Virus record (IMG/VR): IMGVR_UViG_3300037264_002906
Span: 1-54,158 of that record
Source of the DNA: a virus
Taxonomy: Duplodnaviria > Caudoviricetes
Length of the DNA: 54,158 nucleotides
Reading direction: 5' to 3' (one strand)
A program made the position numbers and the translations under genes. Below are positions 1 through 54,158 of the stretch, piece by piece. Position 1 is the stretch's first letter, and every line of letters starts with the position of its first letter. The notes beneath the pieces were generated by a model. The model was not told the DNA's origin, did not search any database, and saw only the letters and a program-made list of their open reading frames with translations.

Positions 1-50
1 CAGCCAAAGCAACAATAGGAGCAGGAGTATTTGTAGAAACAGTCGGAGGG

Positions 51-245
51 TCAAGAGCTAAGGCGGGAATTGCTATCAACATCAAGGTTAAAAGACCGAG
101 AATTTTTCGCATCGTTTCCTCCATCAGTTATCGCGGCATAGTACCCACATACGGTACAGGCTACATCATAACCACCAAGTCCATTCGGCCATTCTATACA
201 GATTAATGGAATCTTACAATTAGGACACCTTTCTTTTACTTTCAC
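51..245 (-). CDS. small Zn-ribbon protein
   Basis: Two CxxC pairs (CPNC, CTVC); overlaps the upstream ORF. Confidence 0.6.
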   Translation of the reverse strand: MKVKERCPNCKIPLICIEWPNGLGGYDVACTVCGYYAAITDGGNDAKNSRSFNLDVDSNSRLSS

Positions 246-462
246 CAGCAGGATTATAGTACAAATCCTCCGCGATTAATTGGTCCCAAATCTCATCACC
301 ATGTCTGTCTTTATCCCATTGGGAAACGAGTCTCCAATTCTTAATCACATGCTTTGGGACTCGAGTCTCTATGAATGTAACTCCCTCTATGCGTCCAAGC
401 TGACCCTTAAATAATGAATCAGGCTTCTTGTATTTTTTAATGCTCACCCATTTACCTGACAT
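220..462 (-). CDS. small protein with a major-capsid-like segment
   Basis: WVSIKKYKKPDSLFKGQLGRIEGVTFIET resembles the GEIG..GVRFIET motif of N4-gp56-family capsid proteins; start moved to ATG 462. Confidence 0.6.
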   Translation of the reverse strand: MSGKWVSIKKYKKPDSLFKGQLGRIEGVTFIETRVPKHVIKNWRLVSQWDKDRHGDEIWDQLIAEDLYYNPAGESKRKVS

Positions 463-676
463 CTTCAAACCTCTTCACCATTTCGTGAACAATAATCTTC
501 GTCGGAGGAATTGTTCCCTCTTCAACCTCATCGAATTTATCGTATTCAACACACAATTCCAGTCGATCACCATTATATTTCCCTGCGACAATTCTTGCAC
601 CATCAGGGAGAAACATAGCCTCTATCAATGCTGAATGAATTGGGACAATTGCTCGTTTTCTCGATATCACATTCAT
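452..676 (-). CDS. hypothetical protein
   Basis: ATGA overlap with the upstream gene. Confidence 0.6.
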   Translation of the reverse strand: MNVISRKRAIVPIHSALIEAMFLPDGARIVAGKYNGDRLELCVEYDKFDEVEEGTIPPTKIIVHEMVKRFEDVR

Positions 677-1176
677 TGGACATCCTTTGTGAGCTGTGGA
701 AAGCTATTTGAACGCCGCGTAATCTCTCGGGAGATACATTGGCATTTCTTATTATAGGCCTCCAGCTTGCTCTTGGATAATTTATAGAAAGACTGAGCGA
801 CCAAGTATTTGCGATTAAAGAAAACAAAATCGGGATGAATCTGAACTCTTGATTTTGCCTCTTGAACTGTCTCGTTTCCAGCAGACATAAGATATAACTT
901 TGCTTTCGTGTGTTCCATCTCTGCTTCAGCGATAATTAAATCATTATCTGCGCGAGATGTGATGGTCTCTGCGTAACAAGCCATCCCAGTAAAATAAGAG
1001 TGCAGATTACCAAGCTCATGATCCTGCACATCCACAATACTCATCGGGAAGTCTTTCGCGTCCACATTAGGACGTGGTTCAGGAAGCATTTCTGTTCTAG
1101 CTGCTTCTCTCGTAGCCTCTTCTTTTACTGTGTCATAAGATGTTCTCAATGGTGGTGCCTTTATCTTAATTTTCAT
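673..1176 (-). CDS. helical protein, possibly a UvsY-like recombination mediator
   Basis: Coiled-coil character, C-terminal ISREITRR, lies in the recA/nuclease cluster; SD GGAGGAG before ATG 1176. Confidence 0.5.
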   Translation of the reverse strand: MKIKIKAPPLRTSYDTVKEEATREAARTEMLPEPRPNVDAKDFPMSIVDVQDHELGNLHSYFTGMACYAETITSRADNDLIIAEAEMEHTKAKLYLMSAGNETVQEAKSRVQIHPDFVFFNRKYLVAQSFYKLSKSKLEAYNKKCQCISREITRRSNSFPQLTKDVQ

Positions 1177-1266
1177 ATCTCCTCCCATATTCCACAAGTG
1201 CTGACTTCAAATAATGGCTCTACAATTAACTGAGCTTGAAGAAGCTTAAGTTCTTTAAGAATCTCA

Positions 1267-1929
1267 TCAATAGTCTTTTCGCTCACAGAACTCACAGTTT
1301 CCACAAATCCATCTATCAGGTCGTTGTTTACTGTCGTAACAGACATTGACATACTTTACCCTCTCAAATATTGTCTCGAAAGTTTCTTCATCAAATGGCG
1401 ACAAAAATTCTTTCAAATCTTGCGTATCTTTATTCTCATATAAAAACACTGACTCCTTAATGTTACTCATCCACATATACAAATGAGCTTGCCATATGTG
1501 TTCTGGTTTAGGACCTTGAAGCGTCATGAACTGCCGGCTGTTCATACTCTTAATCTCCAAGATTCGTGGTCCCGCTTTTAATATTCCATCTGCTGTCCCA
1601 TGAATTCGCCATTGCTTATTTGTGAACTCATGTTCCCCAAATTTATCTTTCGATGGAACAAGAAGTCCCGCCTTCAATAAATACCTCTGCAATCGTCGAT
1701 GAGTGTAGTGGCCATTATCAAAGATGCGCCTCAATCGCGGGTCAATATTGTCTTTTGATATCGCTCCCACCATATTCGCATAAGTCTCATTCAGACATCG
1801 GGTAATCCCTGATGGATGAATAAAGCCATCCCCAGGCTTCTTGTCATTCAGCGAGATTAAATATCTATCGAGCGCAGGAACAAGAATCTGGTCTGTTTTG
1901 AAAGTCTTAAGAATGTCCTTGAGGCTCAT
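1267..1929 (-). CDS. Cas4-like PD-(D/E)XK exonuclease
   Basis: HPSGITRC, GHYTH, GTADG..LEIKS, QAHLYM and C-terminal CGNCEFC. Confidence 0.85.
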   Translation of the reverse strand: MSLKDILKTFKTDQILVPALDRYLISLNDKKPGDGFIHPSGITRCLNETYANMVGAISKDNIDPRLRRIFDNGHYTHRRLQRYLLKAGLLVPSKDKFGEHEFTNKQWRIHGTADGILKAGPRILEIKSMNSRQFMTLQGPKPEHIWQAHLYMWMSNIKESVFLYENKDTQDLKEFLSPFDEETFETIFERVKYVNVCYDSKQRPDRWICGNCEFCERKDY

Positions 1930-2564
1930 GATCGGTCATGACTGATAATATAATCAATCATCTCACTGAAACTTGAGCCCTTCTCAAATGTCCCAACAAA
2001 GGCAAATTGCATATCTTTGAACTCCAATCCCTGAATCGAATCAATCCCATTGTTCGTAGTGATTCCCCATATCTCTTCGGGCTTATATTCTTTCTTGCCA
2101 ATCTTAATTACCTGTTTATACGGAGACCTTTTGCTGTCAATAAAGCTCGACAATTCATGCATCGTCCCTGCTATAATAATCAGCTTCGTGTTCTGCGTTC
2201 GATTACCTATCTCTCGCGCATTAGGCATCACACCATACCCACCAGCTCCCAGCACATTTGAATAGAATTTCATTGAGGGTTTCATAGAATTAGCCACCTC
2301 CATGTCTAATTGATAAGCCGCTTCATGAGCTAATTTCTTAGCCAACCCATCAATGTTTATGTTAATGGGCAAATGGGCTTCCTTCAATTTTGCCACAGCT
2401 TTCTGTATATCTTGCGCGGTTAAAGAAGACTCAACTGCTCCATTAATCGTTCGCGTTAATCTCACATCAGCTATCACAGTTTTGTCACCTAATGGGTCAG
2501 CAGGATCAACTCCAATGAGTGTCGCGTTATCTATTGGGCGTCCCGTTTTCGGATCAATCGCCAT
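1926..2564 (-). CDS. hypothetical protein with terminase-like and capsid-like segments
   Basis: SD GGAGG; motifs described under findings. Confidence 0.6.
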   Translation of the reverse strand: MAIDPKTGRPIDNATLIGVDPADPLGDKTVIADVRLTRTINGAVESSLTAQDIQKAVAKLKEAHLPININIDGLAKKLAHEAAYQLDMEVANSMKPSMKFYSNVLGAGGYGVMPNAREIGNRTQNTKLIIIAGTMHELSSFIDSKRSPYKQVIKIGKKEYKPEEIWGITTNNGIDSIQGLEFKDMQFAFVGTFEKGSSFSEMIDYIISHDRS

Positions 2565-2565
2565 A

Positions 2566-2880
2566 TCATTCCTCCGTTAATAATTTGAAATCATTCTCCT
2601 CACAGATTATCCAGCGTTTATTGCCTATCTCCAAAGCAAGTGCTGGGAATCGGTTATTTCGATTCGCCTCTTTCGTTATCTTCTCCAGCCAATCCAGGTG
2701 AAGAGTTATCTGCTTCTTGTCTGTTCTCTTTGCTTCCACCAGGAATACCTTTGTCTTCACGTCCCCCTTTAACATTGAAATTGCGCCCGAATTGGGACGG
2801 ACCTGACCTCGGAAATCTCGCGCTAGTCTCTTTTCTTGCTTCTGAGAAAGGAACCGTTTGTCCAAGTTTCGAAGTGCCAT
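2566..2880 (-). CDS. Holliday junction resolvase-like PD-(D/E)XK nuclease
   Basis: SQKQEKRLA..SGA..KGDV..VEAKRT motif set. Confidence 0.8.
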   Translation of the reverse strand: MALRNLDKRFLSQKQEKRLARDFRGQVRPNSGAISMLKGDVKTKVFLVEAKRTDKKQITLHLDWLEKITKEANRNNRFPALALEIGNKRWIICEENDFKLLTEE

Positions 2881-3196
2881 CTTCTTTATCCTCCAATGCG
2901 AATGGTCGTGAATTAATCTCTACAGGTTTTGGGGCATTAAGCGGGGACACAGTTGAAAAAGCATTCCCTTTCGCCATATCTACAGGATTTTTCCCTGTTA
3001 ATATCTCAAGAGCTTTTAAGTCATTTGCGCGATTAATAATTTTAAGCTCAGGATTTAACCATCTCGAAACAACCAAAGGTCTCTGGTCATTTGCTCCAAG
3101 CTCAGGGATCATCACAGACCGTCCACTCAAGATTTCGTTTAAGTCTCGGTCATCCAATAAAACCTCAACTCGCTTCTTGTCTGTTTTTAGCTGCAT
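2654..3196 (-). CDS. hypothetical protein
   Basis: SD AGGTG; its C-terminal part overlaps the resolvase in another frame. Confidence 0.5.
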   Translation of the reverse strand: MQLKTDKKRVEVLLDDRDLNEILSGRSVMIPELGANDQRPLVVSRWLNPELKIINRANDLKALEILTGKNPVDMAKGNAFSTVSPLNAPKPVEINSRPFALEDKEDGTSKLGQTVPFSEARKETSARFPRSGPSQFGRNFNVKGGREDKGIPGGSKENRQEADNSSPGLAGEDNERGESK

Positions 3197-5253: not shown

Positions 5254-7136
5254 TTATCGACAATCGCCACATCCGTTTCTATCGGCACAGAAAGCTTAAA
5301 TCCAGTTTTGAATGGATTTTCCATCTCGCGTTTAATTATCGGCGTATACAATCCAGTTCTGGATTCCGCACACTCAAACACCAATTCGTCATGTACCTGA
5401 ATTAACATCTTGCAGGATTTCCCCAATTGTGGAGCTATCTTAATCATCGCCAGCGCAATAATGTCCATCGCTGTTCCCTGAATAATTGCATTCACAGCTT
5501 GTCTTTCTGCTCGGGCTCGAATTCCAAATACCCGCCGTTGTTCTTGCTTATCTCGTGGGTCTTTAGTGAGTGGCTCATTAATCTCAGGAACCCTTCTGTA
5601 TCGCCCCAATAAAGTGCGCACATAAGTTTTCTCATGCGCATACCTTTTCACAGACTCAATCCAAGGCAACACCATCGGATAAGTCATAAAGAACCCATCC
5701 ACATAAAGAATTGCCTCATCCTTTGAGATACCCAATTGTTCAGATAATGCCGTCGGTCCCTCTCCATATGAAATCCCGAAATTAACAGCTTTGGCGATAT
5801 CCCTCTGCGCTTTCGTAATCTTATCAGCAGGTCTCTTAAATATCTTGCAAGCAGTAATCATGTGCAAATCTTTCCCATGATTAAATGCGTCAATCATCAC
5901 CCTGTCTTTAGAGAAATGAGCAATCAATCGCAATTCGATATTCTTTTCATCGAACACCAGCAATTTATTACCGGGACCCGCAACAAACATATTGCGAATC
6001 TCTTTCCCATTCTCAACCCGAATTGGGATATTCTGAAGGTTCGGGTCAGAGGAAGATAATCGCCCCGTCACAGTTCGAGCTTGATTAAAGCTCGTATGAA
6101 TGCGCCCATTCTTTAATCTTGAACGTACCCCATCCACATAAGTCCCTTTCAATTTCTGCAATCCACGATGATTAATAATGTCTTTGCAAAAGGCAGAATT
6201 CTTAGATAACTCAATCAGCGTCTCTTCATCAGTTGATGGAGCTTTTGTTTTCTTGGAGTATTTAATTGGCTTCAATTTGAATTTATTGAACAGAATATCG
6301 GCCATCTGTTTCGTGCTATTCAAATTAAACTGAGACCCTACCTGGCTAAATATCTTCGCTTGCGTTACAGCTATCTCACCAGTAAATCGCTTATCCAATG
6401 CGTCCATATGCGCTTGGTCGATTAATACCCCCGTCCTTTCCATCTTGAATAAAATTCGCAACATCGGCATCATCACCCGATAAAACATGTCGTCCAATTT
6501 AAGGCGCACCAATTCGGGTTCGTACTTCTCATAGAGCTTATATGTCCACTCAGCGTCATTTCGTGCATAGTGAGCCACAAAGGGAATCGTCAGATTAATA
6601 ATCTTCTCTTTACCATTCCCCTTTCCAACAATGTCTGAGAATTCCAACATCTTGAATTTGAACTCCCTCATAACTCGCGGCTTCAATCCCACAAAATAAT
6701 TCTCATCAACCAACCAAGCCATTGTCATCGTATCGCAAAGTTGATTCTTAATTTTGAGGCCATATCTATTGACCACATGCATATCGAATTTGATGTTATG
6801 CCCAATGCACAATTTATCGGGATCAGAAAATATGGGCTGTAAATTATCCATCACAGTTCCCATATTTAACTGACGATCATCAAATGTCGCGTTTAGAATT
6901 TTATTCCCGTTCCGAAATTGTGCGTAATCGGACGTATCAAACCCCATAGGGATGAATACACTCCCCATTTCAGTAGTGTATAAGCTTAAACCTACCAATG
7001 AACCATCTTCCTCAGTTTCAGTATCAAATGCAAACTTATGGGCCCGTTTAAGAGCAGCATGAACAATATTTAATTGGGACATTGTTCGAATTATTCGAGT
7101 TAAATTATTTCGAGTAGAATTAAGAATTATTTTCAC
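5235..7136 (-). CDS. polA: family A DNA polymerase with 3'-5' exonuclease domain
   Basis: FDTET, HNIKFD, YARND, TGRLSSSDPNLQNIP, motif B KAVNFGISYG, motif C QVHDE. Confidence 0.97.
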   Translation of the reverse strand: MKIILNSTRNNLTRIIRTMSQLNIVHAALKRAHKFAFDTETEEDGSLVGLSLYTTEMGSVFIPMGFDTSDYAQFRNGNKILNATFDDRQLNMGTVMDNLQPIFSDPDKLCIGHNIKFDMHVVNRYGLKIKNQLCDTMTMAWLVDENYFVGLKPRVMREFKFKMLEFSDIVGKGNGKEKIINLTIPFVAHYARNDAEWTYKLYEKYEPELVRLKLDDMFYRVMMPMLRILFKMERTGVLIDQAHMDALDKRFTGEIAVTQAKIFSQVGSQFNLNSTKQMADILFNKFKLKPIKYSKKTKAPSTDEETLIELSKNSAFCKDIINHRGLQKLKGTYVDGVRSRLKNGRIHTSFNQARTVTGRLSSSDPNLQNIPIRVENGKEIRNMFVAGPGNKLLVFDEKNIELRLIAHFSKDRVMIDAFNHGKDLHMITACKIFKRPADKITKAQRDIAKAVNFGISYGEGPTALSEQLGISKDEAILYVDGFFMTYPMVLPWIESVKRYAHEKTYVRTLLGRYRRVPEINEPLTKDPRDKQEQRRVFGIRARAERQAVNAIIQGTAMDIIALAMIKIAPQLGKSCKMLIQVHDELVFECAESRTGLYTPIIKREMENPFKTGFKLSVPIETDVAIVDKWGNAK

Positions 7137-7503
7137 GATATTTTCTCCACTTTCTAATGTACGAAATTGCAGATTTAAGAATTTCTACATCATCTTTCGC
7201 ACGACCAAGAAGAGTATTACAGCTATGACACAGCAATCCCCTAATCAAAACAGGATAAATTTGGGAATGGTCATGATCTATTTGAAGGCGGTCAGGATGC
7301 TTACCGCATATAGCGCACTTACCTTGTTGTCGTTTTTCCATATCTAAGTAATCAGCCCTCTTCATTGAGTAACGATACAACCGTCTCGTGAGAGAACATT
7401 TCTTGAATCGTCCTCTTCTCACTGAATTGATCCTTTCCTTATTTCTCAAGTAATATGCTCTATAACGTTTTTCTGTTGTAAGACATCCTGACCACTCCCT
7501 CAA
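7120..7503 (-). CDS. Endonuclease VII-family homing endonuclease; 5' end probably frameshifted
   Basis: CAIC..LQIDHDH..IRGLLCHSCNTLLG. Confidence 0.8.
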   Translation of the reverse strand: MREWSGCLTTEKRYRAYYLRNKERINSVRRGRFKKCSLTRRLYRYSMKRADYLDMEKRQQGKCAICGKHPDRLQIDHDHSQIYPVLIRGLLCHSCNTLLGRAKDDVEILKSAISYIRKWRKYRENNS

Positions 7504-10666: not shown

Positions 10667-11137
10667 TTAATTCCAACTTCGTTGGTGAATGATCGCGTGT
10701 ATATTCCCTATAGTGACCCCAAATTTATTTGCCAGATTTTGCATAGTCAATTTAGGATAAACAGCCCTAATTACCGCAACATCCCTCTGTGATAATTTAG
10801 CGCATCCATTTCTCTCACCTTTTTGAGACATTCTCCCACGAAGAAAAGCATCTCTTATATTTTTAGAGTGCGTCCCCAATTCCAAGTGGTCAGGGTTAAC
10901 GCATTGAGGATTATCACACTTATGAAGAACAAACATCCCCTTTGGAATATCTCCTTTAGCCATAAAATAAGAAAGTCTATGTGCGCTCCAATGTTTTCCA
11001 TTCACATAAATCTTCCCATACCCATCTTGTAATCTCCAGCCCAACCATAATCAACAAGTACGAGTCTTTTTAGTATTTCGCCAAAACCGATCATGAACTG
11101 AAGGCCAAGGTTGGCGATATGGAGATTTACTTTTCAT
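10667..11137 (-). pseudogene. HNH homing endonuclease with an in-frame TGA at codon 29
   Basis: RFWRNTKKTRTC*LWLG..AHRLSY..VLHKCDNPQCVNPDHL..GERNGCAKL; the stop sits where this family has a conserved Trp. Confidence 0.8.
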
Positions 11138-14030: not shown

Positions 14031-14334
14031 TATCGCCTCCTAAATATTTTTCTCGTATCTTTTTCCATTCAGAGAATGTCCTCTCCTTGAATCGGGTCTT
14101 TTGAAACCCAATCCCAGCTCTCGGAAATTCTTCGGCTACAATTTTTACAAGTGCATCAACTTCTGCTTTGAAATACAACCTTTGTCCGCGATTATCGCGA
14201 AGGGCAGCTCTTGGAATATGGCCATGATTTTCCCACTTACGGACTGTGATAGAATCACGACCCACCAAACCAGAAAGCTCACCAATCTGATACATCGTAT
14301 GCTTCTTCCCCTTAACGACCATTTCTCTAGGCAT
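13966..14334 (-). CDS. MerR-type HTH DNA-binding protein
   Basis: YQIGELSGLVGRDSITVRKWENHGHIP..RLY. Confidence 0.85.
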   Translation of the reverse strand: MPREMVVKGKKHTMYQIGELSGLVGRDSITVRKWENHGHIPRAALRDNRGQRLYFKAEVDALVKIVAEEFPRAGIGFQKTRFKERTFSEWKKIREKYLGGDNENSKEKADGEGHLQSRAHIV

Positions 14335-14773
14335 GATTCACCCCATTTAATAGGGCATAAGGGCCAAACAATTTCTTGGCCCAATAGTTATAGACGAGTG
14401 CTGCTGAAAACTCGTCCTTAAACCTCCCCAATGTTTTATTTTGAATCACAGCTCTCCACTTATTTCTCTCCATATCCCACGAAACTCCCTTAAACCATGA
14501 GGTTGATTTCTCACGTTTTTTACGATTTCTCATATTTTCAGCATGAGAAGAGACTCGTAAATTACTTCTGCGATTATCCAATCCATCCCCATTCACATGA
14601 TCTACCCTTCGACTCCCCATAATGTATTGATGCAGATAAACTTTCATCTCAGTCTGCCGATAAGCGTAAACATTGTTCTTTCGAACATCTGCTGTCCATT
14701 TGTAGGGAGCAACAAAGGGATAATCAACCGCATCAACGATTATAAATAGACCCTTTGTTATTGGAATTCGCAT
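14327..14773 (-). CDS. HNH-AP2 homing endonuclease
   Basis: VDHVNGDGLDNRRSNLR followed by AP2 domain FKGVSW..KWRA..LGRF. Confidence 0.9.
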   Translation of the reverse strand: MRIPITKGLFIIVDAVDYPFVAPYKWTADVRKNNVYAYRQTEMKVYLHQYIMGSRRVDHVNGDGLDNRRSNLRVSSHAENMRNRKKREKSTSWFKGVSWDMERNKWRAVIQNKTLGRFKDEFSAALVYNYWAKKLFGPYALLNGVNHA

Positions 14774-14915
14774 TGGTTCCTCCTTTAGCTTTACAGATTT
14801 TGTGATAGGAAAAACCGCCCACAATAAGCTTGTTAGGAGATTGGGGATTGACCTCCTGCTTACATCGTGGGCAAATCACATTCTTCTTTCTAATTATTGG
14901 CCTTGTATCCGGCAT
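14733..14915 (-). CDS. small Zn-binding protein
   Basis: CPRC..HKIC; SD GGAGG. Confidence 0.55.
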   Translation of the reverse strand: MPDTRPIIRKKNVICPRCKQEVNPQSPNKLIVGGFSYHKICKAKGGTNANSNNKGSIYNR

Positions 14916-15692: not shown

Positions 15693-16211
15693 TCATAACA
15701 CTTCCTCCGATTTTTTATTTTCTACGTCAATCCCAAACTGTCGTTTGAGAAAATCAATGTCTATTTCGTAATAAAATTCGCTTCTTTCTCGCCACAACTC
15801 CATCTGCTCTCTCGCGTAATTATTCGCCTGTCCTAAAGTCCAATTGTTTACTTTCGCCAAATGTTCTAGGCATTCAGCCAATTGTCCCCTCATTTCACTA
15901 AGGCCGATATGTTTTACCTGGTGACAATTGGGACAAAGGGCGATCATGCGGATGAGTTTCTGGATGCGTTTCTTGTCGTCGTATTCCCACATCTCGTGGC
16001 ACTCCACTGGCCACTTGATTCCCTTCCCTCCGCATATCTCGCATTTGCGTTTTGCTCTGTCGTAAATCCGAAACCGGATTGTGTCCCATTCTTTTTTCGA
16101 CACCATGCTTCTCACGTTGTTGAACCAAGACGTTCTTGGAACTAATTCGATTGTTAATTTTGGTTGTAAATCCACAGCTTGTACACCTCCCTTCCACAGT
16201 TGGGGAATCAC
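15693..16211 (-). CDS. HNH endonuclease; start uncertain
   Basis: LTIELVPRTSW..CEICG..ECHEMW..LCPNCHQVKH. Confidence 0.85.
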   Translation of the reverse strand: MIPQLWKGGVQAVDLQPKLTIELVPRTSWFNNVRSMVSKKEWDTIRFRIYDRAKRKCEICGGKGIKWPVECHEMWEYDDKKRIQKLIRMIALCPNCHQVKHIGLSEMRGQLAECLEHLAKVNNWTLGQANNYAREQMELWRERSEFYYEIDIDFLKRQFGIDVENKKSEEVL

Positions 16212-26280: not shown

Positions 26281-27825
26281 CTATCCCACTTCATATGCAA
26301 TATAAGCATTGACACTATTTCCGTACAATAAATGCGATTGGCCTGCCACTCCAGCAGTAGAAACAGCTTGGATTCTACTACCACGAGGATTCAAAGATGC
26401 GTAACTCATAGCAGTCGTCGCTATCTGACTCCCCGCAGAGTCATCAACTGTAAAAGCTGTTTGACTACTAAATGTGATAGTAGGAATTGCCGCCATAGTA
26501 ACTGGCAACATTGCCGGCCCATTTGCTTCTCCCGTCTTGCCTTTCAGGGGGAGAAACACATACTGGGTTGAAAAGTCTTTTCCGAGCGTTTGATAATACC
26601 TCTGACACCTCATCAACTCAATCGCTGGGTCTTCTGATATATAGGGCATCACAACACTCCCAACGACGAGTGATGCATTCATAATGTAAATGTTCGGGGT
26701 ATCGCTCAGATTGGTAACTTCAACACGAATCACTGAAGATGCTGGGTTAATGGCAACGGGAGTAGTCACAGACAATAATTCCCAACCAGTTCCAACATTC
26801 CCTGAACTGGTTCCAAGAAAAGCCCCGGTACCTGTCGTGGAAATTCTGAGTGCCGCAACATAGGTGGCGTTACATTTCACCCAAACAGAGAACGTAAGAT
26901 ATTTTCCACCGAATCGTTGTGGATTAGTGACTGTCTGACGAAGAACTTTCGTATAACCACCACCGAAACTTCCCGACAATGACCAATTCATACAATACGT
27001 CCCATCGGGGGCTCCCTGAGCTGGAGCACTAGCCCGTGTAGCTGAAATCGTAGCCCCTCCACCTATAATAGCCAACTCCCAACCATCAGCGCACTTTACG
27101 TTTGAACTTGAACAAGAAAAAGATGTCCCTCTTTGCCAGATATTAAACCCACCATTAATCAGTATATTGGAAACATTCTGCTGAAGAGCCGTTACCGCCC
27201 CAGCCATAACTTTCTCAATTTCAGGATTTTCTGGGATATATTCAACCGGCTTAGAACCAACCACTGCAATAACTGAGTCAATATAAAAAGTACAAATTCC
27301 AACATCCGTTGTGGTGTCATTCTGCCCGATATAAACATACAGATATGTTACGTTAGTGGCTATTGTTTTCGTAACTGTAAGCGTCTGCCAAGTGTTATCA
27401 CCTGTATGGTAGGCAGAATAAGACTCACCACTGATGTCGAAAATTCTCATGCGAACTTTTCCAGCAGAATTGCATTTCACCCTCGCACTAAATGACACAG
27501 TTTTCCCCTGGAGGAATTGAGCGTTTGAGGCACCTGTTAAGGCGTCTAAGAACGAATAAAAAAGTGTGGTCTTAGAGCCAACTGGGCTGACCGTCACATC
27601 AAATTTTACGCTGTATTGACCGGTATCTGCTGTGGTACCCCTCGTCAATGAAAACGTGCTATTCAAACACTGAGTCTGCCAACCATCGGCAACAAAAGTT
27701 GTCCCGACAAGTAGATCTCCCTGATTCCATGAAACTCCATTGTTCCATAATTCAAAACCACCATTGGCGAGAAGATTCCCCGTCTTTTGGTCAAATAAAT
27801 TCCCAGCTAAAACTGTCTGTGACAT
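26281..27825 (-). CDS. receptor-binding / tail fibre protein with two CBM-like repeats (copy 2)
   Basis: NLLANGGFELW and NILINGGFNIWQRG repeats; ELMRCQRYY. Confidence 0.8.
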   Translation of the reverse strand: MSQTVLAGNLFDQKTGNLLANGGFELWNNGVSWNQGDLLVGTTFVADGWQTQCLNSTFSLTRGTTADTGQYSVKFDVTVSPVGSKTTLFYSFLDALTGASNAQFLQGKTVSFSARVKCNSAGKVRMRIFDISGESYSAYHTGDNTWQTLTVTKTIATNVTYLYVYIGQNDTTTDVGICTFYIDSVIAVVGSKPVEYIPENPEIEKVMAGAVTALQQNVSNILINGGFNIWQRGTSFSCSSSNVKCADGWELAIIGGGATISATRASAPAQGAPDGTYCMNWSLSGSFGGGYTKVLRQTVTNPQRFGGKYLTFSVWVKCNATYVAALRISTTGTGAFLGTSSGNVGTGWELLSVTTPVAINPASSVIRVEVTNLSDTPNIYIMNASLVVGSVVMPYISEDPAIELMRCQRYYQTLGKDFSTQYVFLPLKGKTGEANGPAMLPVTMAAIPTITFSSQTAFTVDDSAGSQIATTAMSYASLNPRGSRIQAVSTAGVAGQSHLLYGNSVNAYIAYEVG

Positions 27826-28094: not shown

Positions 28095-29630
28095 CTAAAC
28101 TTCCGCAGCCCAAGTTAAGCCCCAGGCCAATAATGGATAAGTTGTTTGGTCCACTGTTCGTCCCAAAACAAATTGCACGTTCTCAGTCGTTGGTGTGTAC
28201 CCCGCTGCCGTCCAATTTGCTGTGTCAGGCGACGCTTCGGTATTTCCCGTGTTTGGTAAATGTCGCATGGCACATACAAACCCCGTAACTGTTATCGTCG
28301 GAACAGCGGATTTACTCTGCTTAAATTGCGACAAGCCTGAATAAACCACACAGGAACTCGTCAATCTTTGAATCGCCGTTACGATGGTCGATATTGAAGC
28401 CTTTTCATAAAATCTTTGGCATCGAGCCAACTCAATCTGATAATCCTCGGGGTAAAACGAAATCGGTGTTGTTCCGTAAGTCAACATCACCGAGTCAATA
28501 TAAATATTCCCCGTCCCATACCCCGACTCTTCGTTAATTCCCACATACACTCGAATAATTGACGCCGACCCCAAGTTTGGAGTTATCGTGCAAGTCAAAG
28601 TTTGCCATGTGTCATCGCCATTATGGTATGCCCCATAAACAGCCGTAACCCCGTCGTGCATTTTTATTCTGACGCGATTGGCAATATTTGTCTTGACCCT
28701 TGCAGTCACCGTCAATGGGCCTCGGCCCTTTCGTCGCAGTCCACCGGTTACCTCCACATCTTGATACAAGCAACATGAGTCAGACCCGCTGCCGGCACTC
28801 GAAATAGCGATTAATGCTCCATACGCTCCATTTCCAAAGTCGTGTACGGACGAAGATGATTGTTGTGAAATAACTGCGGTTGGTGGAGTAACCCCATTCC
28901 GAAGATACACCCATCTATCTGCTGTGTAAGTTAAATTCGCCGGGGATGAAAAACTGGTTCCCCGCTGCCAAATTTCGAACCCACCATTGACCAATATATT
29001 GGGGACATTCAAACCCACGTCGGCTACTAACCCAGTTTTTACCTTATCTAATTCAGGATTTTCGGGGACATAATCAACTGCTTTATCGCTCATTACCACC
29101 ATTGCATTGTCCGCGTAAAAAATTCCCGTCGTTACTGTCGTCAGCTCAAATCCAATAGCAAAATGCAAAACTGACATAGTAGACCCTGGAACTAAACTAA
29201 CCATTAGAGTTTCCCAATTTCCACTACCAGTATGGTAGGCGGAATATGCAGCGGTCACACCATCACTCAGTTCAATGCGAATCCCATTCGCAATAGTCGT
29301 CTTTACCTGGATTGACGCAAAAATCTTTTTTCCAATTAAATCAACCCGAGGCGTAGAGTTAAGAACTTTGGCGTTCGACCCGGCAGGGGTAACGACCTGA
29401 AATTTGAGAGAATATTTACTGCCCAGAGATGCAATCTCAGTAGATTCACGGTTAATGTTAAGTGTGTTCCCCGACGCATTGGTAACCCACCCCTCCGCTA
29501 TCCGTGTACCGGATGTCGTAAGCCCATTAAATGACGTGCCAAAATTCCACTGTTCAAATCCCCCATTAGCAAGTAAATTTAACTGGGGCTTAACGTCAAG
29601 CAAACTGTTATTGACTATTCTCTGTGCCAT
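28095..29630 (-). CDS. receptor-binding / tail fibre protein with two CBM-like repeats (copy 1)
   Basis: NLLANGGFEQW, NILVNGGFEIWQRG, ELARCQRFY. Confidence 0.8.
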   Translation of the reverse strand: MAQRIVNNSLLDVKPQLNLLANGGFEQWNFGTSFNGLTTSGTRIAEGWVTNASGNTLNINRESTEIASLGSKYSLKFQVVTPAGSNAKVLNSTPRVDLIGKKIFASIQVKTTIANGIRIELSDGVTAAYSAYHTGSGNWETLMVSLVPGSTMSVLHFAIGFELTTVTTGIFYADNAMVVMSDKAVDYVPENPELDKVKTGLVADVGLNVPNILVNGGFEIWQRGTSFSSPANLTYTADRWVYLRNGVTPPTAVISQQSSSSVHDFGNGAYGALIAISSAGSGSDSCCLYQDVEVTGGLRRKGRGPLTVTARVKTNIANRVRIKMHDGVTAVYGAYHNGDDTWQTLTCTITPNLGSASIIRVYVGINEESGYGTGNIYIDSVMLTYGTTPISFYPEDYQIELARCQRFYEKASISTIVTAIQRLTSSCVVYSGLSQFKQSKSAVPTITVTGFVCAMRHLPNTGNTEASPDTANWTAAGYTPTTENVQFVLGRTVDQTTYPLLAWGLTWAAEV

Positions 29631-37260: not shown

Positions 37261-37770
37261 TTATTTAACTCCTTTAAGGTACGATAACGCATTCTCAAGA
37301 ATCTGTGGGTTGTCTAAAAACCCGCCCAAGCTGAAATTACAGGCGTTACAAATAAACCCACGAACTTCTCCTGTTTTATGGTTATGGTCCACGCAAGAAG
37401 GCTTCCTACTCTTGCATATCGGACAGACACCCTTAGAGAGCTTGACCACCGCTTTATATTCCAAATCAGAAAGGCCATAGTTCATTATTCGGTAGCGAGA
37501 CATTGAATTAGGCGCACACGTAAGGCACCATTTTTGTCTGGCACCCGATTTCACATATGGCTTTTTACAATGCTGACAAACTCCCTTAATTTTCCCATTG
37601 ATAAAACTTTTACTCGCACAGATGGCTGCATCCACATATTGCTTATTGAGACATTTTTGAGAGCCACACGTTCTCAGATAACCCTTGTTTACGCCATTAA
37701 CAACATTGAGCCTCACGGAATCAGGACAATACTTACAGGAGCGAACTTGTGCCTGACTTTGAAATGGCAT
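37261..37770 (-). CDS. Endonuclease VII-family nuclease
   Basis: CPIC..VDHNHKTGEVRGFICNACNFSLG; start at MPFQS with TAATG coupling. Confidence 0.88.
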   Translation of the reverse strand: MPFQSQAQVRSCKYCPDSVRLNVVNGVNKGYLRTCGSQKCLNKQYVDAAICASKSFINGKIKGVCQHCKKPYVKSGARQKWCLTCAPNSMSRYRIMNYGLSDLEYKAVVKLSKGVCPICKSRKPSCVDHNHKTGEVRGFICNACNFSLGGFLDNPQILENALSYLKGVK

Positions 37771-38078
37771 TATTTCCACCCTCCTGTCCTTGAGACATGA
37801 TAAGGAGATTTTTGAGAATTAACTCGGGCAATCTCTTTCTCTAACTTTTCAATGCGCTTTCTATTTTCGTCATCTTTTTTCTTCTGTTCCCGCGCTTTTC
37901 TCTCTTCTTCTTTTCTGGCTTTCTCAGCAGCAACTTCAGCCTTTCGTACTTCTCGTCGGCGTCTATCTGCATCATCTACATCGCGTAAATCTTGTGTCAT
38001 CAAAGCTTCATTGTAGGGATCAGCTTTAGCTTTATAATATCTGCGTTCTTGATCGAATGATTTGAAATAAAGACTCAT
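37770..38078 (-). CDS. charged coiled-coil protein
   Basis: E/K/R-rich helix; ATGA coupling. Confidence 0.7.
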   Translation of the reverse strand: MSLYFKSFDQERRYYKAKADPYNEALMTQDLRDVDDADRRRREVRKAEVAAEKARKEEERKAREQKKKDDENRKRIEKLEKEIARVNSQKSPYHVSRTGGWK

Positions 38079-51663: not shown

Positions 51664-53046
51664 TTAAAGCACAGAATACGGAATGCTATAAGCACTATCT
51701 ACACCGTTGAAATTTTGTTTCATGCGAATTAAACTTCCCACTCCCAACCATCCAACCCCATAAACGAATCGAGCAGCTGGAACAGTTCCCGTCTGAAGAG
51801 AGACAGTCGAAATAACAGTATATCCTAGGTCCAATGGCCTCTTTATTTCCACTGTCAAGAATGAAGTCGGAACACCTGTTGCGATAATTACACCCTCGTC
51901 ATTGCGTATTGGAGCCAACAATGTCGGAGGGCCCAATGGGGGAAGTACCGCTGAAATCTCATTTGATAAAGATATCAGCATGTTCTTATTCACCACACCA
52001 ACCACCCAATAATAGGTTGCATTTTCGCGCAACAATAAATTCGTAGACCATTGAGAATAAAAGGGGTCAGGAGTTAATCTATTCTGATCCGTCCAATAAG
52101 TGACAGAATTTCGATAAAGCATTCTTATCGGAACAGTCACTCCACCCCATAATCCAGAAGCAAAATCTCCAGGGTCATCATAAAGTGCAATTCTTTTATT
52201 GTAGACATCTTCAATCACTCTCTTCTGCACATTCGGCGCAGTAGAGCGATAAACAATGTAATAATAAAAACCTGGGTCATATGATTGCGTCCACCTTAAT
52301 TCTGCGCTTCCCGCGCTCAAATTAAGAGCTGGCAGTAATTTGATGGGTTCAGGAGGTGTTGCAAAGATATAAGGAGTTCTTCGGCCAGTCGTAAAAGATT
52401 CGCGGGTCATATAAGACTCTTTGATAAACCCACTTCTCTCGGCATTTAATTGCCATTCATCTCTCTTCGTCGTATACCGTTCCATGTATTTATCATGGAC
52501 CTGCATATACTTCTCAACACGATTCGATTTATCAACCGTCATCCCGTCGATAGACAACAAGAAATATTTCGAGGAATCTTGCGCGAGAGTTAAAGCAATA
52601 TTCGCAATAGCAAGCCAAGTAATTAGCAACTCATCTTGCTCCGTCATCTCATTCCATTCTTTGAAACGATTATGAAGAATCTTGGCTTCGTTTAGGAAAT
52701 CAAGCATCTCCCAATCAGGAAAGCAATAAGGCAGGACATGATCGTTAATCTTTCGGCGGATTTTCCAAATTAAATCAATCGCAGAGGCATCAGTCGTCTC
52801 TCCCCTTCTCGGGTCAGTTTGAGCGATAACAGTCCCATCTGTCGCAACACTTTCAATTATGTACCAGTCGCTTTTTGATCCAGTTGCATCATAATACTGA
52901 ACAGTAAATACGCCGGCAGTTTGGGCAGGAGTTATTTCAGTAACTTGGGCATAAGTACCCGTTCTGTCTTGGCATTTCTTAATGCGAAATTTAACAACTT
53001 CATTTGCTGAAGTTCCCTGAGGCGCGTACCAATAAACTAGGTTCAT
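51664..53046 (-). CDS. head-tail adaptor-like protein with FN3 domains
   Basis: IRRKIND..FPDWEMLDFL core; ELRWTQS..YIVYRS and YYWVV FN3 motifs. Confidence 0.65.
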   Translation of the reverse strand: MNLVYWYAPQGTSANEVVKFRIKKCQDRTGTYAQVTEITPAQTAGVFTVQYYDATGSKSDWYIIESVATDGTVIAQTDPRRGETTDASAIDLIWKIRRKINDHVLPYCFPDWEMLDFLNEAKILHNRFKEWNEMTEQDELLITWLAIANIALTLAQDSSKYFLLSIDGMTVDKSNRVEKYMQVHDKYMERYTTKRDEWQLNAERSGFIKESYMTRESFTTGRRTPYIFATPPEPIKLLPALNLSAGSAELRWTQSYDPGFYYYIVYRSTAPNVQKRVIEDVYNKRIALYDDPGDFASGLWGGVTVPIRMLYRNSVTYWTDQNRLTPDPFYSQWSTNLLLRENATYYWVVGVVNKNMLISLSNEISAVLPPLGPPTLLAPIRNDEGVIIATGVPTSFLTVEIKRPLDLGYTVISTVSLQTGTVPAARFVYGVGWLGVGSLIRMKQNFNGVDSAYSIPYSVL

Positions 53047-53647: not shown

Positions 53648-53688
53648 ATCTATCTCCTTTGTCAATGTCAAATAACTGCACGGGTATC

Positions 53689-53727
53689 AGGGGTGAGAAG
53701 AACCTTAACAACGCTCTCCCCACCCCT
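53689..53727 (-). terminator. stem-loop after the putative capsid C-terminus
   Basis: AGGGGTGGGGAG..TTCTCACCCCT inverted repeat. Confidence 0.55.
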
Positions 53728-53743
53728 CAACCACGTTTAATTC

Positions 53744-53803
53744 TTAGGCGGATTCAAGACGGACGATATTAACGTCAGTCAAGCGGCCAGTACATCTATA
53801 CAT
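53744..53803 (-). CDS. probable C-terminal exon or fragment of the major capsid protein
   Basis: (MYRC)TGRLTDVNIVRLESA* resembles N4-gp56-family capsid C-termini; followed by a hairpin and neck genes. Confidence 0.55.
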   Translation of the reverse strand: MYRCTGRLTDVNIVRLESA

Positions 53804-54158
53804 TTGCGAGTCCTTTAGAGCGTAACAGCGGGCTAAATTTCTTAACCCGTTTCAATTTATTGCTCAATCGAACCATATCACTACGGTAAACATCCCAATC
53901 AGAAAGAAATGCGATTTCTGCAATATCTCTCCAGATCAAGAAATCCCTTTGCTTTTTAGACTGCAAGGGATACTTCTCAAAGTGAGAAATTATCTTTTTC
54001 CATTCTCTCGCTGTACTAAGTTCCAATCGAAATGCTTTGGAATAAGCATGAGAGCCATGATGACTGTAAATCCTTCCACAGCCAAAATAACTTCGAGCCT
54101 TAAGAAGCGTATTCAAGTCATCTCCACGAAGGGTAATTGTTAATCGTAGATTAACTCC
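53796..54158 (-). mobile_element. LAGLIDADG homing endonuclease, truncated by the window edge
   Basis: Frame open to the edge: LRGDD..YFGCGRI..IISHFEKYPLQSKKQRDFLIW. Confidence 0.88.

Follow-up and report, generated by a model that had tools for sequence, protein, structure and literature searches.

What does a piece of a major capsid protein (MCP) do in a small gene that lies outside the head module? The question arises at one end of a linear IMG/VR virus record of 54,158 bases from a sediment metagenome, a fragment with an estimated completeness of 58% (the whole of this stretch is called the window hereafter). The phage is a sediment myovirus whose genome is estimated at roughly 93 kb. An earlier note, based on the letters of the DNA, had pointed to a capsid-like segment in a small open reading frame (ORF) and proposed that it could serve as a decoy for a capsid-sensing defence, as a regulator of assembly or as an inhibitor of competing phages. 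The origin of this segment and its possible role are considered in turn below.

The mini-gene and its genomic setting

The mini-gene occupies positions 220..462 on the minus strand and comprises 80 codons plus a stop (ATG at 462-460, stop at 222-220); a start at the TTG at 468 instead would lengthen the product by two residues. A Shine-Dalgarno-like AGAGG, read from the sequence, is located 7 nt upstream of the ATG (470..474, minus strand). The gene is tightly packed with its neighbours on the same strand. An upstream ORF of 74 aa (452..676), to which profile searches assigned no family, has its stop inside the start of the mini-gene, with 11 nt in common; a downstream ORF of 64 aa (51..245) begins at a GTG within the mini-gene end, the overlap being 26 nt. 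The latter has the form CxxC...CxxC and is zinc-ribbon-like with its two CxxC pairs, its zinc-ribbon-type matches being sub-threshold only. The GC content of the mini-gene is 0.40 versus 0.42 for the window. Beyond these genes, a further ORF at 2-124 (minus strand), with a signal-peptide-like hydrophobic start, leaves the window at its left end. In a DNA sequencing run that may represent the source sample, contigs match positions 1-3000 without differences, and one of them extends 1851 nt beyond position 1.

The minus strand carries 38 of the 41 ORFs of at least 150 aa found in the window. In the direction of transcription (54158 to 1), the gene order starts with a cut LAGLIDADG ORF, small ORFs of connector size and an ORF of 460 aa, and continues with the tail sheath, tail tube, baseplate and tail-fibre genes, then the lysin. 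These are followed by helicases, a primase, an SSB, PolA, a UvsX-like recombinase, a RusA-like resolvase and a Cas4-like exonuclease, and a run of small ORFs, the mini-gene among them, closes the order at the low-coordinate end. The mini-gene lies outside the head module; the recombinase and exonuclease genes precede it, and it stands where the replication block ends. The term 'early region' used in the earlier note is not established for this site, which is the distal end of the replication and recombination run and where promoter-like sites are not enriched (6 found versus 9.8 expected). Neither Rfam families nor tRNAs were detected in the window.

Other features of the gene map can be noted here. 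The tail-fibre genes at 26281-27825 and 28095-29630 (minus strand; 514 and 511 aa) are adjacent paralogues, both of which match one tail-fibre PHROG over their C-terminal halves. Five homing-endonuclease-like ORFs, three of HNH and two of EndoVII type, are scattered across the replication and baseplate modules (7120-7503, 10667-11044, 14327-14824, 15693-16211 and 37261-37779, minus strand); with the single LAGLIDADG ORF they constitute an unusually high load for 54 kb. No close relative of the phage was found among the sequences searched. Its PolA reaches a best identity of 37% among 50,697 phage records, the Cas4-like protein used as a query recovered no relative of the phage, and viral contigs contained no exact copy of a 49-base string taken from the right end. 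The sheath query returned two contigs that share short stretches only and contain no match to phrog_1357 or to the family of mini-proteins described below.

A capsid segment joined to a conserved tail

The capsid-like segment that had been placed at nt 364-450 is indeed present. It corresponds to WVSIKKYKKPDSLFKGQLGRIEGVTFIET, i.e. residues 5-33 of the 80-aa ORF (nt 450..364, minus strand), and lies inside an MCP-derived segment covering residues 4-38 (349..453, minus strand), which is supported by phrog_1357, TIGR04387, the MCP of Bacillus phage BCD7, hhalign and an independent MCP profile, A4. Comparison with profiles of capsid families, which the earlier note had proposed as a check, gave significant matches. 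In phrog_1357 ('major head protein'), residues 4-35 align to profile positions 228-259 of 356 with an E-value of 2.4e-5, and in NCBIfam TIGR04387 ('N4-gp56 family major capsid protein') residues 4-38 align to positions 203-237 of 324 with an E-value of 5.1e-6 and 26 bits. Residues 4-38 have profile matches to MCPs and to nothing else, and Pfam gave no match for the mini-protein. The conserved element W..KY..P..F.G(E/Q)(I/L)G.I.GV.F.ET of the N4-gp56 family is found in this segment.

Pairwise comparisons agree with the profiles. The best named match among phage records is gp100, the BCD7 MCP, with 15 of 31 residues identical in BLASTP (pairwise E 5e-10; MCP aa 240-270 of 357), and identity to individual MCPs amounts to 48-50% across 30-31 residues. 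An hhalign comparison of five mini-proteins with seven phage MCPs, the latter chosen from matches to the mini-protein, gave a probability of 97% and an E-value of 1.2e-10 over 36 columns. Profile A4 was made to avoid circularity, from nine prophage MCPs that phrog_1357 had identified in Bacillota genomes. When A4 was run against all 963 stop-to-stop frames of the window, the mini-ORF was the sole match (E 4.3e-7, profile positions 193-232 of 311), the next best frame having an E-value of 0.97. Shuffled versions of the mini-protein never exceeded 6.5 bits (0/5000), versus 25.0 and 35.0 bits observed with two profiles. Chance resemblance is excluded by these shuffles together with E-values of 1e-5 to 1e-7 in three profile libraries.

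Searches of large collections lead to the same protein family. Tblastn against the 50,697 phage records returned 24 records, 21 of which match within query residues 1-40: nine of these bear a major capsid or head protein annotation, a further one is the BCD7 locus under the label 'hypothetical', and 11 are unannotated. For three of the unannotated records (L024, L025 and L028) the ORF under the match was extracted, and each is a full-length MCP. The remaining three tblastn records were set aside as noise (E at least 4). In Bacillota prophages, phrog_1357 has 16 matches in 15 of 401 genomes, all in open frames of 276-524 aa, and no stand-alone mini-gene occurs among them. The profile and pairwise comparisons show residues 4-38 to be homologous to the MCPs of the N4-gp56 family. 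The earlier note had named two grounds on which its idea should be dropped, the lack of a significant profile match to capsid families and the existence of full-length homologues with an unrelated fold; the match is significant and no full-length homologue with another fold came up, so that neither ground applies.

Homology does not amount to membership. The 26 bits obtained with TIGR04387 stand against a cut-off of 60 bits, and about a tenth of the profile is covered; judged by its sequence, the mini-protein is a derivative of the N4-gp56 MCP family and not a member of it. Where N4-gp56 MCPs have about 300-400 residues, the mini-protein has 80, and it is devoid of the N-arm, the E-loop, the P-domain and the rest of the A-domain. 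It carries instead an unrelated conserved C-terminal half. The setting is also different, since the MCP gene of BCD7 comes after that of the portal, whereas the mini-gene is found outside the head module.

The C-terminal half, residues 39-80 (223..348, minus strand), is unrelated to MCPs, is predicted to be helical and has no match in Pfam, PHROGs, NCBIfam or the PDB. Its conservation became apparent with the discovery of relatives. Word-indexed searches and exhaustive searches of representatives revealed, on separate contigs, five more stand-alone proteins with lengths of 67-82 aa, which answers positively the suggestion that similar isolated fragments might exist elsewhere. Identity to the window protein is 61-75% for P0002, P0003, P0004 and P0012, and 37% for P0010. 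Both halves are present throughout the family (P0001, P0002, P0003, P0004, P0012 and P0010), and phrog_1357 is matched individually by four of the five members scanned. The tail motif W49-D50-x2-R53-H54-G55-x2-I58-x2-Q61-x2-A64 occurs in all six proteins and has no counterpart in MCPs. Fourteen positions are invariant in 6/6 sequences: F18, G20, G23, V28, F30 and T33 in the capsid-like half, and W49, D50, R53, H54, G55, I58, Q61 and A64 in the tail. Identity to the window protein ranges from 13/28 to 27/32 over aa 4-35 and from 11/32 to 24/31-24/32 over aa 36-67, i.e. the two halves are about equally conserved across the family. Selection was judged from this protein conservation and from the intact reading frames. 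What is present here is a conserved chimeric mini-gene outside the head module, in which a piece of an MCP is joined to a novel tail.

The capsid-like half has nevertheless diverged at specific positions. The glutamate of GEIG is replaced by glutamine in four of the six mini-proteins, and the arginine of VRF by threonine in five and by asparagine in one. Given these replacements, the surface of the mini-protein is no faithful copy of that of an MCP.

Other candidates returned by the searches do not belong to the family. P0006, P0007 and P0011 are long repeat proteins and were taken as noise, while P0008 and P0009, from contigs of 812-1620 nt, are pieces of capsid genes. Among 102 candidates, none was a longer relative of the mini-protein at E<=1, which is weak evidence. 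Viral contigs scanned with the mini-protein or with the family alignment contained no relative. The only locus returned from metagenome contigs was spurious, a frame antisense to a high-GC bacterial gene, and genome contigs yielded one full-length prophage MCP and one spurious match.

The capsid gene of the phage and the origin of the fragment

The earlier note had placed the capsid locus of the phage about 53 kb from the mini-gene. This is borne out in part, by a weak match to the last 17-19 MCP codons at 53803..53747; the MCP body, however, is absent from the window, where phrog_1357 matches the mini-ORF alone, and since the record is a fragment the distance around the genome may differ. The putative MCP 3′ end (53744..53803, minus strand) comprises these 17-19 codons and a stop, and aligns to the extreme C-terminus of two MCP profiles, A4 (positions 292-308 of 311, E 5.1) and A3 (319-336 of 341, E 2.7), both matches being weak and both calculated over 963 frames. 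The sequence before its stop reads ...RLTDVNIVRLESA (53803..53744). It is abutted, in a different frame, by the LAGLIDADG ORF (53796..54158, minus strand; Pfam PF00961, E 6.3e-10), which is open at the window end; read from the LAGLIDADG stop onward, the other frame gives ...MYRCTGRLTDVNIVRLESA and then a stop. A PHROG scan of the 35-aa frame containing the putative MCP end returned nothing. Directly after the putative MCP stop, at about 53680-53736, there is a hairpin with a 15-bp stem (-36.4 kcal/mol, z -4.1). Both this strong hairpin and the location of the stretch ahead of the connector and sheath genes support the reading as an MCP 3′ end. Probably the right end of the window contains the 3′ terminus of an MCP gene that belongs to the N4-gp56 family, seems to continue beyond the window and has a homing endonuclease inserted 17-19 codons before its stop. 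The capsid gene of this phage may be split, or interrupted by an intron, close to that terminus; group I intron models gave no match in the visible part of the right end.

A short way downstream of where the capsid gene seems to end, the ORF of 460 aa (51664-53046, minus strand) has no Pfam or PHROG family. It was considered as the MCP, being at the expected location, and was rejected as it has no similarity to the mini-protein. It may encode a decoration or neck protein, its look-alikes in the Atlas being viral fn3/Ig-like proteins and head-completion or adaptor proteins and not MCPs.

An interrupted capsid gene raises the possibility that the mini-gene is an exon or a broken piece of such a gene. 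MCP genes can be interrupted, that of this phage seemingly carries a LAGLIDADG insertion, and the capsid-gene pieces P0008 and P0009 were found on short contigs. Yet the left 53 kb contain no other MCP part, the independent profile having a single significant match in 963 frames, and an Rfam search of positions 1-1300 found no intron-like RNA. The mini-gene is also complete in itself, with a start, a ribosome-binding site and a stop, and its conserved tail is unrelated to MCPs. Without a flanking MCP-like frame and without intron-like RNA, the mini-gene is considered neither an exon nor a full copy in decay; taken together with chance resemblance, such an explanation is extremely improbable.

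A second possibility is that a piece of the capsid gene was copied ectopically during the repair of a double-strand break and has persisted without function. The LAGLIDADG ORF at the putative MCP 3′ end and the three HNH and two EndoVII-type ORFs speak for this, in that such a load of homing endonucleases makes frequent break-induced recombination likely. Against a neutral by-product, all six sequences retain an unbroken ORF of similar length, even where identity has fallen to 37%, and both halves are conserved; the mini-gene has a ribosome-binding site and is tightly packed with its neighbours, and there is no other MCP-like frame beside it. Persistence without function is thus very unlikely, while the many endonuclease genes do suggest a route for the original copying of the capsid piece.

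Possible roles of the mini-protein

To locate the copied piece in the capsid protein, an AlphaFold model of the family MCP L029 (308 aa) was used. Its mean pLDDT is 54, with values of 66-90 over residues 130-200. The model comprises a long helix at 103-125, taken to be the spine helix, a helix at 152-164, a strand at 175-179 and a helix at 181-188, followed by a short helix at 202-206 and the hairpin strands 209-213 and 216-220. The mini-protein aligns to residues 192-225, i.e. to the loop, short helix and β-hairpin after helix 181-188, and this element is situated in a better-modelled part of L029 (pLDDT blocks 52-82). From the order of elements under the HK97 topology, and not from coordinates, the copied piece would belong to the A-domain. 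The best solved matches of the model are the capsids of phages N4, Moo19 and B2, in line with the N4-gp56 family (TIGR04387) that the earlier note had named; solved capsids of this type include those of N4 (9e99/9lbz) and Moo19 (9d7z).

The prophage MCPs L036 (G094:C10) and L030 (G077:C2) have insertions of roughly 100-190 residues directly after the hairpin element. The MCP similarity of the mini-protein ends exactly at this insertion point, which suggests a natural structural boundary. The fold of the mini-protein itself is less clear. Its structure prediction is poor (pLDDT 45.8), with helices at 37-41 and 48-67 of low confidence; structure matches in the Atlas all have TM<0.45, no usable feature match was obtained there, and a PDB profile search returned a beta-glucosidase only (E 0.19). 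A hairpin packed against a C-terminal helix, as the low-confidence model has it, is for this reason a prediction only.

The explanation preferred here, at a probability of roughly 40%, is that of a small accessory protein made of a captured MCP piece and a helical tail, which acts as a mimic and competes for a binding partner of the MCP. A piece of roughly 35 residues of an N4-gp56-type (HK97-fold) MCP would have been captured and fused to an unrelated helical tail, and would now be translated together with overlapping neighbours in a gene block different from that of the structural genes. The product would imitate a conserved element of unassembled capsid protein and compete with monomers for whatever binds it. 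Candidate partners are a neighbouring capsomer subunit, in which case the protein would be a modulator or poison of assembly, an assembly or folding factor, or a host sensor; the conserved tail may add stability or a second contact. The finding of six family members among billions of proteins searched is counted against this reading.

Recognition of this part of capsid proteins has precedents. Avs7, Avs8 and Avs10 recognise MCP monomers, binding the face of the A-domain through which capsomers form, and short motifs of the MCP are the target of Lit and CapRel (PMC13581612). The contacts that CapRel makes include a β8-β9 loop of the A-domain (PMC9712102). In view of such recognition, this part of the MCP is a plausible recognition surface. 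A special case of the mimic is the decoy proposed in the earlier note, which would occupy a sensor of the CapRel, Lit or Avs type before real capsid accumulates. The known sensors of short MCP motifs or of the A-domain face of monomers (PMC13581612; PMC9712102) and the place of the gene within a non-structural block would fit a decoy. Such sensors, however, are normally activated by binding, and a mimic might trigger them instead of blocking them; the lack of enrichment of promoter-like sites does not help, and the regions reported to be sensed by Lit (Gol) and CapRel may differ from the copied element. None of 40 other small ORFs scanned contains a fragment of another structural protein, so that there is no 'decoy module'. 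A role as defence decoy is decidedly unlikely. It is also rather unlikely, though a little less so, that capsid self-mimics form a recurrent and undescribed class of phage accessory genes. The present N4-gp56-type member would then offer the conserved A-domain hairpin as bait, either to blunt host sensors of unassembled capsid monomers or to disrupt the formation of capsomers in competing phages with the same capsid type.

The main rival of the mimic is a function unrelated to capsids, in which the hairpin would have been kept as a structural module, for example in an accessory factor binding DNA or proteins. Most of the motif residues that MCPs conserve look as if they belong to the core and determine the fold; a stable hairpin alone could explain their retention, which also counts against mimicry. 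The position of the gene after those of the UvsX-like recombinase, RusA-like resolvase and Cas4-like exonuclease, among small ORFs, is consistent with such an exaptation, as are the conservation of the C-terminal half to the same degree as the capsid-like half and the replacement of charged MCP positions (E by Q, R by T or N). On the other hand, no nucleic-acid-binding or other known domain was detected, and the segment still reads as an MCP motif at 37% identity, in P0010. This exaptation is a possible but doubtful explanation.

Capsid proteins and their descendants are known in other roles. The Gol peptide of T4 gp23 activates the Lit protease, an example, like the short MCP motifs sensed by CapRel, of a capsid stretch that can be an active ligand by itself. 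Gol is nonetheless part of the capsid protein and not a separate gene, and it belongs to another MCP family and to another part of the fold. The T4 vertex protein gp24 and the capsid homologues of phage satellites are descendants of MCP genes with a new role; these retain the complete HK97 fold and are incorporated into shells, whereas the mini-protein keeps about one tenth of that fold. For a small phage-borne protein acting on the virion assembly of a competitor, Tab provides a precedent (PMC10884400); it acts on tails and has no known sequence relation to the mini-protein. Stand-alone mini-proteins made of capsid fragments were not found in the literature at the level of titles and abstracts, which is weak evidence, and the family described here, small as it is, is apparently undescribed.

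Capsid proteins are among the main signals by which bacteria detect phages, and they are contested building blocks for competing phages and satellites. A separately encoded conserved capsid element would be a simple means to disturb sensing or assembly. If the mini-protein does bind a sensor or a capsid subunit, it would represent a new phage counter-measure or a weapon between phages, and would provide a minimal peptide probe for the recognition of capsid monomers. If it is a structural module only, it would be a clean case of a new gene arising from a fragment of an essential structural gene.
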